64,000 bases of DNA from Harriotta raleighana (Eukaryota): positions 6,565,058-6,629,057 of the forward strand of contig JBNZDD010013718.1 of assembly GCA_050575255.1 (NCBI GenBank). Direction: 5' to 3'. The notes below the pieces were generated by a model. That model saw only the letters and a list, made by a program, of their open reading frames with translations. It was not told the origin of the DNA and ran no database searches. The position numbers and the translations under genes are program-made. This document shows, one piece after another, positions 3,515-37,100 of this stretch; within the stretch, counting starts at the first letter, position 1; each line of letters starts with the position of its first letter.

Positions 3515-3780
3515 TGTAATTGATCTTTCACATCAGGAGGAGGTCCCAAAGAGCTTCACTGGATTAAATTGTAGTGACTGCATATTCTGGAAGTGAGTAC
3601 TGCAACTAATTTGAATGTCCCACAAACAACCATGAAATGAATTATGTGTGATCAATTTTATGGGGATGCTGGGGGGGGTGGGAGGGTGGGGGGGGAAATT
3701 GTTGGCCAGGACACAGTGAGAAATTCCCTTCTCTTTTTACAAAGAATGAGGTGGGATTTTTAGAGTCAACCTGAAGAAGC
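3515..3780 (-). mobile_element. Old Deu-domain SINE fragment
   Basis: tcccaaagagcttcac...tcccacaaac...ttgttggccaggacac...gtgggatttttagagtcaacctga. Confidence 0.6.
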
Positions 3781-28064: not shown

Positions 28065-28157
28065 TCAAAAAGGTTTGGAAAATCTCACAGATTTTCTTTT
28101 CACCAGCTGCTGTTGCTTTCTTGTGGACCAAGCTTCTTCAATAGCATTGGCAGCCCT
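28065..28157 (-). CDS. VPS13C: VPS13C last coding exon with stop codon
   Basis: ttgcag|AGG; [30 protein letters not shown] (TGA at 28065-28067). Confidence 0.9.
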   Translation of the reverse strand, partial: RAANAIEEAWSTRKQQQLVKRKSVRFSKPF

Positions 28158-31100
28158 CTGCAACAAATCACCAGCAATTATTTCAGATAAGAGTTATAGT
28201 TCATGTCTTGTTAAGGCGAATTCTATGAGCTCAAGTTATTCAGGCTGAGTAAATTCAGGTTGATTGAATAATTTGTTTACACAATTTAAGGAGCTCAAGT
28301 TTAATGAATGTTGGTGCACCTAATATATTATGTATACATGCTTAAAATGTAGTTGGTGATAAGTAATGCTTGGAAGATTTCTCTCTAATGTAATGTCATT
28401 TTCCAAAACAAATTTATAAATAAAAATGAGTAATGTGGCAGTTTTTTTTTCAAAAAACACACATTATTTCCCCCATCTGTTGGACTCACCAACAAGTGGA
28501 AACAGCCAATTATTGCCCAACCAATCGAATACTTTCATAATTTAAAATATCTTTCGCTCACAATACATAGTCAATTTACGTTACAGTATATTCTGTGAAG
28601 CGCTATGCGACAACTAGAAGATGTGATTAGGCAATGTACCAAATACAGAGATTATTGTTATCTCTATTGAGTCCCCTTTCAATCAAGAGAGAAAAGCTTC
28701 AACATGTCCAATCTTTCTTGATGACTGTATCCACTCATCCCTGGTAACAAACTCTACTCAAACTCTCCGTACTTACCTTGACGTTGTCCCCATCCTGGAG
28801 TTTAACTGTTTTCACCAGGCCATGACTCACATTTTTTGGAATGGAAAACCCTATTAATGATTGATCCTGTAAAGCAAAATAAGAATTGACTTTTTTTTAA
28901 TGTAAATCAACACCTTTATGAGGCTTTATTTGAGTTAATGTTCCAAATGTGCAGATGTTTATTGAAAATCTTCATCATTTATATTTCTTGGAACTTTTCA
29001 AAATTTTACCATGAGAAAGAGGTAAACAAACTTCTTGTAAATTTCCTTGAAGCTTGGCTAGGGAGTAAACAGGTGATATCATTATTTTATCTTCATTTTA
29101 GTTAGGTCAACAAGAACATTCAGGAGTAATTATACAGCATATATGCATGAAAATGACCCTGTGAATCAAATGGTATGATCCATTCAATTCCACATTAATT
29201 ATAACAGTATATTCTGTAAAGTGCATTGAGACACCTCAACAACGTGATGGAAAGATGATTATTATTCATTAGAACGCTTCAGAAACAAAATGTGCTTTAA
29301 AGACAACAATTTGCATTTATATAACACCTTTCCTGTGAGTCGCGTCACAGAGCAAAGAAGATAAAGGTCCATATAGATTGGGATTACTGACATTCATTCT
29401 GGTGGGCAGAGAAGTACCTTCTAAGAAACAACTTGCACTTGCAGAAATGGGGTTTAAATTTTCCAGCACTTTTCATGACAGACCATAAGCAGATACAAAC
29501 ACAACCCACTGCAATAAGATTATTTGTATGGTAAGATCCTTTTTCACATTATCTAAACATGGAGTTAAACCATTGTCATTGTCCAGTACCTTGGGGACAT
29601 CCTCCCCAAGTGAAAGGCACTATATAAATACAATTTGTTGTTATTCACCCAGTCTCCTTATATTCGTCAGCTGGGTATGCATTGTGTACCCCTCTGAAAA
29701 GGTGGCAGACCTATCCACTGTTCTGAAACCAAACCTAGCAGATGTGTAGAAAGACTTGGAGGAAAGGGAATCTCCTCCCTCCCCACAGGAAAGCAACTGG
29801 ACTTCCTGCTTCCCACACAAATTCAGTCATTCCCACATCCTCCAATTAATAATGCAAGTTGTCACTGTCCGATTCCCACCGGAAAATCTGGAGAATGTTC
29901 AGTGTTTAAAACCTCAATGTACAGCTTTCAAAAATCCCTTTTCCCCGTTTATTCAGTATTAGGTACTGACAAAAATTGTGTTCAGATCTCTAAATAGCTT
30001 GATCTATGATTGAACATTGTACTAATTATAACAGATTTGTACAGATCCATGTCATAAACTACTTTTTCCCCAAAACAATATTGCTCAACAATGAGCCTCT
30101 CATTCAAAAGCTGTATCAAACTGGAAAATTAAATTGCACATTGCTTTAGATTCATGGTGGGCTTCAATAAGAATTTACAAACACCAATACATCACATTTC
30201 CTGAATGACATGAGAATAAATTGGGAGTAAAAATATCTAGCTGATGTTTATCCGAGGTGGCAAATAACTTAACAGTACAGCTCCTTTATATTTATTATAA
30301 GATCTTAAACAAAAATGCACCTTTTTAAAATTAAATTGTAATTTTAAAATATGTATTTGCAATGAATGTAGTTTAGCAATGCATGATCACATTTTTTTTT
30401 AAACAATATAATTGTAATGCATACCTTCATCTTATGGCACAAAACAACTATGGATTGTATCCTGTAATATTTTGATATCTACCATGTACTAAAAATCATA
30501 CCTTGATATACAACCTCAACACATTTCCTTCCACAAATGGTGGCTGTGTAAACTCATCGAACGTGTAATTCCAGTCACTTCCAAGATGTCCTAGAATTTC
30601 ATCAGACACACACAGGACTCTCCTGCAATAACCACATAATTTGTAAAAGTGAGTTAGTACAGAGTGCAACTTAAAAATAAGACTTGAAGTTTATTATTTA
30701 CTGCTACAAAGTACCATAAACGTGAAGGGCTACTCCATGCACTGTTTCCTAAAACTAAAGAAAGAATATTTTAATAGACGATTGCTGTGAAATACAGTCA
30801 ATATACTTAACAGTGATTCCTGTGAAGTGCTTAAGACATCCTGCTGATGTGAAACATTATGTCAAATGAAATTATTATTATTAAGCATCGCTATTACTGT
30901 AGACAAATGTTGCACCCAATTTCATCCACAAGATCCCAGAGACAGTCAGGAGATGAATGACCAACTAACAGGGCAATTTAAAAAGTGCTAATCTATTATG
31001 CTATTCTTCAAATAATATTTTTACAGTTGAAGATTAACTGCAATCCTTTATCACTAGTTGGTTTAGAGATGCTTAAATCTTACCTGTTGGTGATGAGCAG

Positions 31101-34100
31101 ATTTGCCTTTCTGCTTCCATATATAGGATAGTGATTACGATACATCTCTCCTTCAAATTTCTGAATATCCAGTTTCTGCAATAAAATTGTACCACAAGTT
31201 ATTTTTCAAAATAGATTGCAATACTTAACCCAAGGATATAGGGGTCAAGCCTCCATTCAATATTGCATACATCACCATTATACTTGTGTATCATCTTTTA
31301 CCTTGTGCCGTGATAGCACGTTAAATGGTGCAAGGATCCCCAGCACAAACTCACTGTCACAAAGCATCGGTTTATTTTCCACTCTGTTCAGTTCCTGATA
31401 CCAGCAATGCCACAGTGAAAGTACAATAAACTATTGATGGGAGAATTATCCAGTTGCTCACGCCAATTGATACAACACAGCATTAGCAACGCTTGGCAAC
31501 AGGTCTTGTTGGGCCCAGTTCAGGCTTGACTTAGAGTAAAAGTGATTTACTGTTAAAATTATTCAGAGCGACTCGCTTGCCAACAATGTACTTTATTGAT
31601 AAAAGGAGCTAAAAGCAGCAATTTTAATCTTGAGCTTTAGATGATGTTTATAAAAATGTGTGCACTGTGATACTGTTAGTCATCCAAAACATGTAAATGC
31701 CGAAGATAAAGTAACCAGTTACAATTACGATATGGCTCATCAGAATTTGGATACATTTTTAATCTTAAATCAAATTCGTATATTTCCATTTCCCAATCAT
31801 TTCTGAACCACAATTTTTTTTTGATAATCCCAATGTCTGATTTATACAAGATTAACTTTTAAAAATCACAATTACATTTCACAGATTATCATCAATCGGT
31901 CTACCATTACTTTGTAGATTGCAGATTACAATGTGTATGAAAGATGCAAAAAGGAGTTATTTTATTCTAATTATTCCAGCTGGACAATTTATCGACAACC
32001 TATCTTTTGTGAACATTTTGCCCACAAAATTATAGTCAATTCACTTTAAAATATATGCTGTGAAACACTTTGAGACTTTTTAACGACTTGATAAAGGGCT
32101 ATATCAAATGCAAGGATTATTATTATTAATAGTATAATTTATTAAATTAACCCTAAAATTTCAAATTAATTGGCTGATCATTTCATTTGTGGAACATCGC
32201 TGGTACAGATTAGCTGCTGTATTTGCCTATTTAGCAAAATTCACTTAATTTCTAATCATTTAATTTTGTGAACCACTTTGAGTTGTTGGATTTCATGTGA
32301 AAATAATGTGTTTTATAAACTCACTATTTTCTCAGATTTGAGGAAAGTACAGATGTTGAGGAAGAAACAGAAAACTAACAGATATGTACATTTTAATCAT
32401 AAAGTGTTTGGCATATAAATGAAACATCTGAATTACAAGTAACAAGAGAAACAGAAGTGAGACAATTATTCACACTAATTGGGACCAGCCCCATTGTGGA
32501 TGAGCAATCAATCCAGATAATTAATTGTGATGATACAAATAGGCTGTTGATGATTTCCCCCTCCCCCAAAAAATCTATCAGAAATTTCTTCTCTTCCTTT
32601 TTCTCTAACTCTTTCTAACTTTTCTCTCTTTTGGACTCTTTTTCCCTGAGCCCAATATGGATGACTTGACTTGTTGATAAAACAGATTTCTACTGTATCT
32701 ATGTAAATGAAATATATACACTAACACTGCAGCCTAATGCATTTTATTCACGTGAACAAACTCAATTGGCAAAAGTTACACTTTTTAAAAAAAAACTCTG
32801 ACGGCAATCTATCATTTTGGTCCCAAATTGTGGCAATCTAAAATTGTGCTCCTCCTCAATCCATTCATAACATTTCATGAACAATAGTCTCACTGATATG
32901 TGTCAAATCTTTTACAATTAATATTGAAATTGAAGGGAGGAAGAATTGGAATGGTGGAGTTCAGGCGAGGAGACAGGCAATAAATATTCAGTGCAAACAC
33001 ACAAGAAATTATACAGTTATACTCACTGAGCACAAAATTAAATTTTAAAGTCCAATCGATTGGACAAGAAAAAGGAGCAAATAGTCAGAATGGTGAAGAC
33101 AATATGCAACAAGATGTCACACAGTCTCAAGTTCATATTATTTTAAAATTATTTCCTTCAAACAGTTAGCACAAAAAGTCACCATAGCTAACATTTAAAA
33201 TTATTAGCAAGATGTATAATTGTATGTATTAAATTAATTGATTAATCAGTTGAACATAATTTATTCACCATGATGTGCATGCCATGTACTATGAGGTCTT
33301 AATTATGAGAAAAGTACATACAATAGTGAGAAAGCTTTAAATACATTTATACAGTGTAGTAAGCTAAAATCAGTAGAATGTTTCAGTAAAAGCACATAGC
33401 ATAGGTAGAAAGATGCAAGATATTCTATTTTCATTCCATTTCTTGCTGCATGTATAGGAGAAAAGAAAAAGGAAAGTTAGAACTTTTGCTTAAAAGGAAG
33501 CCATGCATTCATAGANAAGGAGAAAATAAAAAGGAAAGTTAGAACTTTTGCTTAAAAGGAAGCCATGCATTCATAGAGTAGAAAGTTTTTTTTTGTTTTA
33601 ATTGATCAGTTTTCTAGTTGTATAACTTCTATAACTAATCTTTAGGGCTCATTGTATGCAGAAGTCTACAAAAGGAACACAAAAGGAGAAGGCAAGTTTG
33701 AATTAAAAAAAAGTACACACAACTGCTGTGAACAAAGTGATATTAGGACATAAAAAAGTCTCTGATAACATCTTTAGTTGGCTAAATAACTAACAATATA
33801 TTCAAATAATTGGGCAGAATTAGTGCATATTACTGGTCTTTCCATGGTGGTGCAAATTTATGAAGTGCAAATCAGCAAATTTTTCAATGGCTTTGAACAG
33901 TATCTGAAAACTGAACATAGTTCATTTCAATAATAATTGTACCTGTGTCTGACACTAGTTTTTTTTTAAAAAAAAGTACATTTGCTGTATAGTTAACTTT
34001 GGTACCATATCATCAGGGCTAAAAGATTTCATGTTATGTTAACTTTGGATACCTTATTTCAAATAAGGAAAGTGATATTGCACTGGATACCAAATCACTG

Positions 34101-37100
34101 AGCACAGTTGTCAGTTGGTGAATTGCATGCCCTAAAACTACTCTATAAAATGGTGTGTTTATAAATGAAATATGTTAACCATGAGATACAAGTTACACAT
34201 CTGAAGAGCTGTGGGAAGGCAGCCACTCAAATAAGACTGAGCAAGATTGAGCTTTGTACAGAACACGGGAATTTGTTAACATCGTAATAATATTCCTTGC
34301 ATTTGATTTAGTTATTAGACGTCTCAAAGAGCTTCACTTCTTCTAGATATCTCAAAGTGCTTCACAGAATATTCTATAAAGTGAATTGACTATAGGCGAA
34401 ATGCGGCAGCCAATTATGCACAGAAGGTGTCCCACAAACATTCATGGATTGGAGTGACCAAATCATTATTCTTTTTGGATGGATTATTACTGTATTAGGC
34501 GTGTGGAATAAGGAAACTTGACCAAGATTTCACCCTGCCTGGAACTGAACTCAGGTCTCTCACTTTAAGGTGAGTGCTCTAACCACTGAGCTACAGGACT
34601 TGTGATTAAATCAAATCGATTGAATATTCATTTTGCTTAAATAAAATTTAAAGGGGATTTAAATTATGTCTACTTCCCCCATTTGAAAAAATAGACATTT
34701 ACCTCAAGTAATTCACATCCCTCAGATTCAGATCTGTTGTAAGTTCTGATGATTCCATCTTCATGGATGCAACGTGGAGGACGGAGTTTATTTACATCTT
34801 CAGTCGACTCAGCTACCCTAAGTTAGGCAATGAAATAGTCAGTAATCTTTTTAATGTATCATTTCATCAAACATATAGAATCAGCTAACCATAAAAATAA
34901 TGAGCCACTTGAATATCTTCTTGGTTCTAATGGAAAAGAGTCATTTTCAAACTGTTTTTCAGCTTCAAATAAACCACATTACTCCTGTTGAAAGCAAGGA
35001 AGGAATTTGTTTTTCGGCGCAGTCTAAATTAAAATGATATCCAAAGACAGTGTTTGAACAATCCAATGTCCAGTTTAACTGCCAGAAGCATACTGCAATC
35101 ACTTGAAAAAATGATTATTAAGTTATGAAAGCTTGGGTAGTTTAATCAAATCTATCATTTTGAAATGCTTCTCAAATTTATTTTGTATTCCATACCATCA
35201 AACCACCGCATGTTTAACCTCTGGAACTCCTTGCCTCATTCCCCTCTTTATCTAACTTTAAATTCCACCTCAAGGCCTACATTGCCTCTTCAACCACACC
35301 TATGCTCACCTCCCCCTTCTCCCTTTCTCGGCATGGAACCCGACCACTATTCAGTGTTCTGTGTCTATCCTACGTGAAGTGCACAATGCAAATGCAAGTT
35401 GTCGTCCCTTATTCAAAAACAATTGAAACAGTGGAAACAGAAATGGCACAATAAACTACACTTTAATCTGCAACTAATCCTCGAGTGCCTCACTAGAGCA
35501 CAGTTTTGCTTTAAACAATGGTTACTTTGGTTCCATAACTTACTTTTTAATTCCTTGGAAAGTGCTGCTTGCCATGTCAATGATGCCGCCCGTCGGTCGT
35601 GCAACAACTCCAACCAGCCCTTTGCCAATTCCTTTGAAGAAGCCGGCTGTACCTTCCTTCTTTGCACCTGTTGCAGGAAGTGTAGAGTCAGAAAATGAAA
35701 ATGAGCTCAAACAGAACTTTAGCACTACCCAGTCAGGTTGTTCATTCATCAAATAAACAAGTAATAATAATAATAATCCTTGCAGTTGATATAACGCCTT
35801 GTCACATTGTTCAGATGCCTCAAAGCGCTTCACAGAATATCCTGTAAAATAGAGCGACTGTGTATTTTGTAGGTGAAACACAGCAGCCAATTGCACAAAA
35901 TAATTACATATCAAGTCGTTACATCTTTTTGAAAGTCAATGTTATCCAATCAAAACCAAACATTTTGAAACCAAAACCTATTATATTTTCTAATATTGGA
36001 CTAGAATACAGAAAAGCTGTTAATAAAAGTGGTGATAAGGTCTCACACAATACAATTTGAAATACATCCCACAGCTCCCCTATGGCGAGCAGCCTTTGGC
36101 TCATGTCAACCTGCATCGAATTTTCTGGAATTAGGAAAATAGAATACTCCCCTCTTACAGAAAGAGTGAACATTCACAGGGAAATTTCCACGTGTGGGTG
36201 CATAGAATGATCTATTAATTAACTTCCAAATTAACCCAGACAATACATGTTACAGTATATCCTGTAAAGCGCTTTGAGACACACCCTCCGACATAAAAAG
36301 AATGCTGAATCAAAGGCAAGGATTACTTTAATAAAAGTACATTCAATAGAAGAATATAATGTCATCGATTCATTACAATCTTGTCCCAAAGCATTGATGT
36401 TTGGTGCATTACTGATCCACGTTTTAGTAACATACCTTCAACAGGCTTTGTGACGATTCCTGTAAATCCTCCCACCACACCCTGAAAGAAATTCCAAAAA
36501 AAATATTTCTACATTGTATTTGTTTCACAGTAGATATAAAATCTGCATAGTTGAAGGGGGATTTAGGGAAGGTTTGATGATGTCCTCAATTTGAATATTT
36601 TGGCTTGCTTTTTGTTGATCCAAATCCATCTAAAAAATTATATTGGTCTGATCATTTCTACGGATGTAGCCCTGTGGCACAGCCTTCGACCCCTTAGGAT
36701 GTCCTCCTGACATGAAATGCGCTCTACAAATGTAATTTTGTTGTTGTTTGGCTGTTGAATTCCAATCTTCACCACATCCCTGTGTGGAGATGCAACTGGA
36801 GGCTGTGGAGTCTCATCATTACAGGGCTGTTTTCATACACCTTCCAGCTGTTTGGCTCATGTCAGCTATCCACACTGAACAGAGACAACAATTTGGAACA
36901 AAATTTCAAGACTGTACAAATGCACCCAATAAACACTCAAAAACACGCAACGATTGATAATTTATGAGGTTTCAATTTCAACTATGCTATTACTGTACTA
37001 CTTTCTACAACCGCACACTAACAAACTTGATTTAGGTTTTGAAATTAAATGACAAAGAAAGCTGTATTTTCTAACACACCTACTGGAAATTCCTTTAAGT

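Follow-up and report, generated by a model that had tools for sequence, protein, structure and literature searches.

A conserved four-codon probable alternative last exon in the VPS13C gene of Harriotta raleighana, predicted to encode an isoform without the PH domain

The VPS13C gene of Harriotta raleighana carries, in the phase-0 intron ahead of its PH-domain exons, a four-codon cassette followed by a stop, CAA GAA ATG GAA TGA (QEME*). On the comparison of gene sequences, this cassette is very probably a real and deeply conserved alternative last exon, of the same kind as those annotated in other vertebrates. The preferred reading, to which we assign a probability of roughly three in four, is that the exon is functional, and that its product would contain the lipid bridge together with VAB, WWE and ATG2_C, lack the PH domain and be gated differently at the lysosome. 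VPS13C, also known as PARK23, is a lipid-transport gene linked to Parkinson's disease. Isoforms of this type are already in databases; the novelty lies in the depth of their conservation and in what is likely the first holocephalan case.

The window, meaning the whole 64-kb stretch of DNA that was analysed, contains the 3′ half of VPS13C on the minus strand, to which all features below belong unless stated otherwise. A tblastn chain over the upstream loci and the window shows exons that are colinear from the chorein N-terminus (locus L009) through an internal duplication into the window. Among the proteins retrieved, the window exons are closest to VPS13C of Callorhinchus milii, with 80% identity over matched exons, and share 65–71% identity with VPS13C of sharks and rays. 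The last shared coding exon (34703–34817, ending in EGCELLE) matches residues 3585–3621 of the human chain 9yqp with an E value of 6.9e-12, compared with 0.0014 for VPS13A, which identifies the host gene as VPS13C; VPS13A itself occupies a separate locus of the same genome (contig C13653). The shared exon ends in a phase-0 GT donor at 34702, the junction falls at 3621/3622 of the human long chain, and the intron that extends from here to the exon at 31175, in which the switch is located, measures 3527 nt. On its far side, four exons of 92, 121, 90 and 93 nt supply 131 more residues and a stop. The first PH-domain exon (31084–31175), which has the competing phase-0 acceptor, matches human residues 3624–3651 (E 0.021), and the second (30502–30622) matches positions 60–98 of Pfam VPS13_C with an E value of 0.02, under the curated cut-off. 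The third (28777–28866) is bounded by GT-AG, in frame and by eye similar to shark long isoforms. The last coding exon of the long isoform (28065–28157; human 3721–3749, E 0.0012) encodes the C-terminal helix and retains a serine matching human S3743.

All elements of the cassette, from CTAAC to both AATAAA motifs, are found on the minus strand where the initial annotation had placed them. The alternative 3′ splice site (33446–33480) consists of CTAAC at 33480–33476, with its putative branch-point A 32 nt 5′ of the exon, a pyrimidine tract at 33475–33456 and CAG at 33448–33446. It is followed by the coding part (33445–33431) and by a predicted 3′ UTR (33430–33260) that closes with the proximal candidate poly(A) signal, AATAAA at 33265–33260, downstream of TGTA-rich sequence; a second candidate AATAAA is present at 32748–32743. 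The QEME* exon is in phase with the shared exon, which ends at the residue matching human 3621. The donor at 34702 consequently has two in-phase partners, namely 33445, leading to QEME*, and 31175, leading to the 131 further residues. Both the position of the cassette, inside the phase-0 intron immediately 3′ of this residue, and its ending, which falls within the pattern of a three- to seven-residue acidic tail followed by a stop, are those of short VPS13C isoforms.

The strength of the splice site was evaluated with a matrix derived from 38 real acceptors of the VPS13C gene of this genome. The QEME* acceptor reaches 7.4 bits, which lies within the 3.1–15.6 range of the real acceptors and above 15 of them, and it ranks second among the 179 AGs of its own intron; 37 of 1943 AGs, the site itself counted, score equally well or better. 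Its earlier description as a textbook acceptor is overstated, as the site is of moderate strength and weaker than the PH-exon acceptor with which it would compete (10.0 bits). As regards polyadenylation, chance alone would place an AATAAA at a distance of up to 170 nt in 15% of cases and of up to 690 nt in 49%. The motif at 33265 is accompanied by four TGTA in the 100 nt upstream, the highest number among 63 minus-strand AATAAA, and its downstream GU element is weak. UGUA has a role in 3′ end processing. By themselves, acceptor and AATAAA are no more than suggestive, and the site stands above chance because of the peptide. On a profile of 17 non-mammalian tails, each from a different outside genus and with the identical tail of the coelacanth among them, QEME* obtains 19.1 bits and is first of the 1943 AGs, with the runner-up at 5.5; the best values elsewhere are 10.5 among 4082 AGs of the plus strand and 2.0 among 510 AGs of the VPS13A intron.

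These scores bear directly on whether the cassette could be an intronic motif that arose by chance or a product of faulty assembly. Such a reading could point to the roughly 2% of AGs that reach an equal acceptor score, to the abundance of AATAAA and to an N, probably marking a join, 70 nt upstream of the exon. However, the gap between 19.1 bits and the best of 6534 other AGs (10.5), together with the identity to the coelacanth tail, largely refutes such an origin, which is extremely improbable, and the cassette is situated entirely on one side of the join. The N in question (33516) separates two 61-nt copies, at 33577–33517 and 33515–33455, that differ by two mismatches. Since all five Ns of the window (17965, 21243, 33516, 44967 and 45074) sit between near-identical local copies, the one at 33516 is likely an assembly join of overlapping contig ends, and a true tandem repeat at 33577–33455 was set aside on the same grounds. 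The branch point, tract, AG and exon are all 3′ of this N. In this assembly, local duplications should not be taken at face value.

Other acceptors in the same intron were also considered. A stronger in-phase acceptor at 33665 scores 9.4 bits; it precedes the QEME* exon by 220 nt and opens onto TSAYNEP* (33665–33642), whose S-A-Y-x-E pattern recurs in a candidate of the VPS13A intron. This acceptor was weighed as that of the actual last exon, or of a paralogue of VPS13A exon 69, but none of 59 short VPS13C tails is similar, and it is retained as a lead. The AG at 33441 was discarded as well, being out of frame and scoring −3.3 bits. By eye, the portion of the switch intron at about 34600–34300 resembles stretches in other introns and represents a recurring element whose 5′ end resembles a tRNA, probably a SINE. 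Elsewhere in the window, an intronic open frame of 447 codons (61421–60081) reads like what we take to be the 3′ part of a non-LTR retroelement protein.

A separate observation concerns the internal duplication of VPS13C, just upstream of the window on contig C13718. The two copies of a 306-nt exon (L006:630-935 and L005:362-667) are identical at 286 of 306 nt and at 96 of 102 amino acids, and their flanks are unrelated beyond the first 30 nt upstream. Within species, the identity of the copies amounts to 94% here and in Callorhinchus, 97% in sturgeon, 86–89% in two sharks, gar and zebrafish, 81% in coelacanth, 76% in skate and 62–75% in tetrapods, and it mostly exceeds the identity to the copies of this genome. 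In terms of sequence, this pattern suggests repeated gene conversion within VPS13C in fishes.

The comparative survey covered 459 proteins, composed of the best 120 of 1393 matches, a second set of the best 120 of 807 and, from each of 30 clusters, a maximum of 15 members. The junction is present in 436 of them and absent in 23, and 59 of the 436 stop no more than 30 residues past it. Of these short tails, 49, from 33 genera ranging from sharks to mammals, form an acidic family by our own classification, with genera taken from source names and the isoforms being public gene models whose underlying read support is not visible. The coelacanth tail, QEME, is identical to the one encoded here. Sharks and rays have QDME (Chiloscyllium), QDKE (Stegostoma), QDMD (Pristis), QDVD (two skates), PDTD or DME. 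HEME occurs in sturgeon and gar, HDME in bowfin, and PEEM or PDEE in teleosts (PEEM in zebrafish); frogs, turtles, crocodilians and birds exhibit QELE or QELD, and axolotl HDLE. Mammalian tails comprise seven residues (QELEIQE, QELEIQD, QELEVQE, QELETQE and QELEIEE), the first of which is found in camels and a bat; the human short 'B' variants presumably also end in QELEIQE. The ten tails outside the family are five that start with V, consistent with read-through of the GT donor, the single residues R and T, LEFFGI, and two nine-residue shark tails. Of 14 pairs of a short and a long form, 13 match over 3593 or more residues upstream, and the sturgeon pair over 2142. Some tetrapod short models could be projected from a mammalian protein, an origin by which divergent tails such as PEEM and QDVD would be hard to explain.

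The proposal of an alternative terminal exon of a PH-less VPS13C, as made in the initial annotation, thus finds its counterpart in public models that share both the junction and the tail family. Because this combination extends from sharks to mammals (sharks and rays, coelacanth, sturgeon, gar, bowfin, teleosts, amphibians, turtles, crocodilians, birds and mammals), the exon predates the chondrichthyan-osteichthyan split, as had been surmised. The term 'cryptic' does not apply, since a model of this type already exists in 8 of the 19 chondrichthyan species retrieved; two have a nine-residue tail and nine are without a short model. In Carcharodon (P0409) and Mustelus (P0414), a related nine-residue tail replaces the four-residue acidic tail at the junction, and 3498 peptide windows of the switch intron contained no convincing match to it. 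Additional searches gave little: a 42-residue homologue search in the junction frame returned two candidates and no match among proteins of 75–2000 residues, 52 exon pieces aligned poorly with one sturgeon protein, and a metagenome scan found two vertebrate-like contigs, which end 93 and 253 nt past the shared exon.

Callorhinchus milii, the closest species retrieved, has no short model among its three proteins, and this absence is one point in favour of an ancestral exon that is dead or unused in holocephalans. The moderate acceptor and the stronger in-phase one at 33665 (9.4 bits) would fit such a loss. Nevertheless, the cassette is intact throughout, from the pyrimidine tract and AG to all four codons and the stop, and the peptide is that of the coelacanth, an identity that neutral drift over such a time would be unlikely to leave; a relic is therefore improbable.

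A further possibility is that the exon is conserved but acts at the RNA level, diverting transcription products to a short, unstable or barely translated transcript, or serving as a poison exon, so as to set the dose of full-length VPS13C, with its residues kept solely because the codons double as splicing signals. The exon has only four codons, and these are GAA-rich. GAA-rich sequence can act as a splicing enhancer, and the conservation of the QEME* codons may reflect this activity instead of peptide function. Moreover, the tail drifts between groups (QEME, QDVD, PEEM, PDTD) and extends to seven residues in mammals, a donor-like TCA|GTGAGT at 33026 could turn the exon into an internal one, and the literature searched provided no protein-level evidence of short VPS13C. 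On the other hand, the stop follows codon four from sharks to birds and the tail remains acidic, the cut coincides with a clean domain boundary, and the proximal AATAAA with its four TGTA precedes the donor-like site. In addition, the PH-less form of the paralogue VPS13A has been produced in cells from a construct and its localisation determined, as described in the accessible part of PMC9436381. On balance, an action confined to RNA seems unlikely, and the functional last exon remains preferred; that a stable short protein is made appears probable.

The structural consequence of the short ending can be followed in the C-terminal fragment of a frog protein (P0288) as modelled by AlphaFold, with a mean pLDDT of 68.7 and with the blocks from residue 91 onwards mostly above 80. 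Helix 106–116 ends at the junction residue, 116, and is followed by seven strands and helix 214–249, and the cut removes the whole PH fold together with the helix that touches the VAB domain. The top Foldseek matches of this fragment are PH, FERM and PTB-type folds, all weak (best E 6.8e-4). According to the available text of PMC13430412, helix 3731–3745 in the cryo-EM structure of human VPS13C contacts VAB repeat 1 in an autoinhibited state and bears reported phosphosites, and Rab7 binding persists after removal of the PH domain. VAB access to Rab7 is reported, in the accessible part of PMC12081312, to be braked by ATG2C and/or PH. The earlier view that the switch removes the C-terminal membrane-targeting module is not supported, as the isolated human VPS13C PH is cytosolic and targeting is carried out by VAB and ATG2_C, both kept in the short form (PMC12081312 and PMC13430412, in the parts available).

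In mechanistic terms, donor 34702 would be offered a choice between the weaker proximal acceptor, coupled to cleavage after the AATAAA at 33265, and the stronger distal PH acceptor. In this species, the competition between the two would presumably result in an isoform ratio that depends on tissue or state. The resulting short protein would have the entire lipid bridge along with VAB and ATG2_C, and would be devoid of PH and of the helix that touches VAB. Such a form would likely serve as a bridge at lipid droplets and at contacts that are routine or driven by tension, and would not be retained on damaged lysosomes, a role suggested because the final helix of the human protein touches VAB repeat 1 and because of the behaviour of engineered PH-less VPS13C. 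The latter reaches bead-stretched lysosomes and leaves after LLOMe damage, according to the accessible text of PMC13328759, with data in supplementary figures. By our own arithmetic, the deletion in the engineered human construct probably begins some 37 residues ahead of the natural cut, and its phenotype may for this reason not transfer to the natural short form. A specific role of the latter in lysosome gating, extrapolated from the human work, is proposed tentatively.

In the available main text of PMC13328759 and PMC13430412, 'isoform' and 'splic' give zero matches, and the short VPS13C C-terminus is absent from the accessible parts of PMC6168267, PMC7881566, PMC4830523, PMC9303930, PMC5005967, PMC10227119 and PMC2654914. 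As far as the accessible texts indicate, cell and structure studies of VPS13C used the long form (variant 1A or 2A, or the 3753-residue isoform) or left the form unnamed. The literature within reach, which included few subscription papers and did not extend to the 2004 human VPS13 family paper, yielded nothing on a VPS13C isoform that lacks PH, on how far such a form is conserved or on the QELEIQE tail.

The retention of a four-codon last exon from cartilaginous fish to mammals argues that PH-less VPS13C is selected and is not annotation noise. The PH domain of VPS13C has no reported ligand, makes contact with the autoinhibitory VAB and is required for retention on damaged lysosomes, and the natural isoform offers a direct test of its role. 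Furthermore, variants in the last four exons would be expected to spare one isoform.

The relationship with VPS13A raises the question of how the switch arose. In variant B of human VPS13A, a short acidic tail is encoded by an alternative exon 69 and the PH domain is lost (PMC9436381, in its accessible part). In the present genome, a phase-0 intron interrupts VPS13A at the aligned position, so that intron position and phase are shared by the two paralogues, and the VPS13C tail profile finds no match in that intron (best 2.0 bits over 510 AGs). A cichlid VPS13A-type model, P0033, displays an acidic 19-residue tail past the aligned junction; this 112-residue protein bears the source name 'mannose receptor, C type', matches the VPS13A-type C-terminal end and is likely mis-named. 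The VPS13A intron also contains in-phase acceptor candidates at L003 9237 and 9165 (minus strand), 141 and 213 nt past the donor, with 8.9 and 6.0 bits. A short GAT-GAT-stop stretch follows the 9165 acceptor out of frame. These candidates may correspond to VPS13A exon 69, although the rank of the 9165 candidate, 6 in 510 against the single VPS13A-type tail available, is not significant. The single lamprey protein represents the long form and is alone in its cluster. The duplication that separated VPS13A and VPS13C took place at least 300 Myr ago, as stated in the accessible text of PMC7613979. A single origin of the PH-less forms in both genes is plausible. A broader scenario, which we regard as rather doubtful, would place a PH-on/PH-off switch in the single VPS13A/C ancestor, with the same intron kept by both paralogues through all jawed vertebrates and two bridge types per gene and species; the short form of VPS13C/PARK23 would then be a natural damage-insensitive bridge, and its tissue ratio would set the capacity for lysosome repair.

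Compared with known systems, the QEME* exon is most similar to the annotated short VPS13C isoforms in RefSeq, Ensembl and UniRef, such as those of Latimeria (XP_064421924.1), Chiloscyllium punctatum (XP_072409241.1), Danio (XP_021327613.2) and Camelus (XP_031308814.2), with which it shares junction, phase, short acidic tail, stop and loss of the PH domain. It differs from the mammalian short forms in having four residues instead of seven. Among the holocephalan proteins retrieved, there is no short model, and the transcript of the present exon is a predicted one. The engineered human VPS13C-deltaPH (PMC13328759 and PMC13430412, in the parts available) resembles the short form in that it keeps the bridge, VAB and ATG2_C and is without PH and the final helix, whereas it is artificial and has no acidic tail. 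Human VPS13A variant B, from the closest paralogue, is analogous in its alternative last exon, short acidic tail and removal of PH, although its tail is longer than that of VPS13C; in the accessible text of PMC9436381, the VPS13A PH domain binds XK and mitochondria, in contrast to that of VPS13C, which binds neither.
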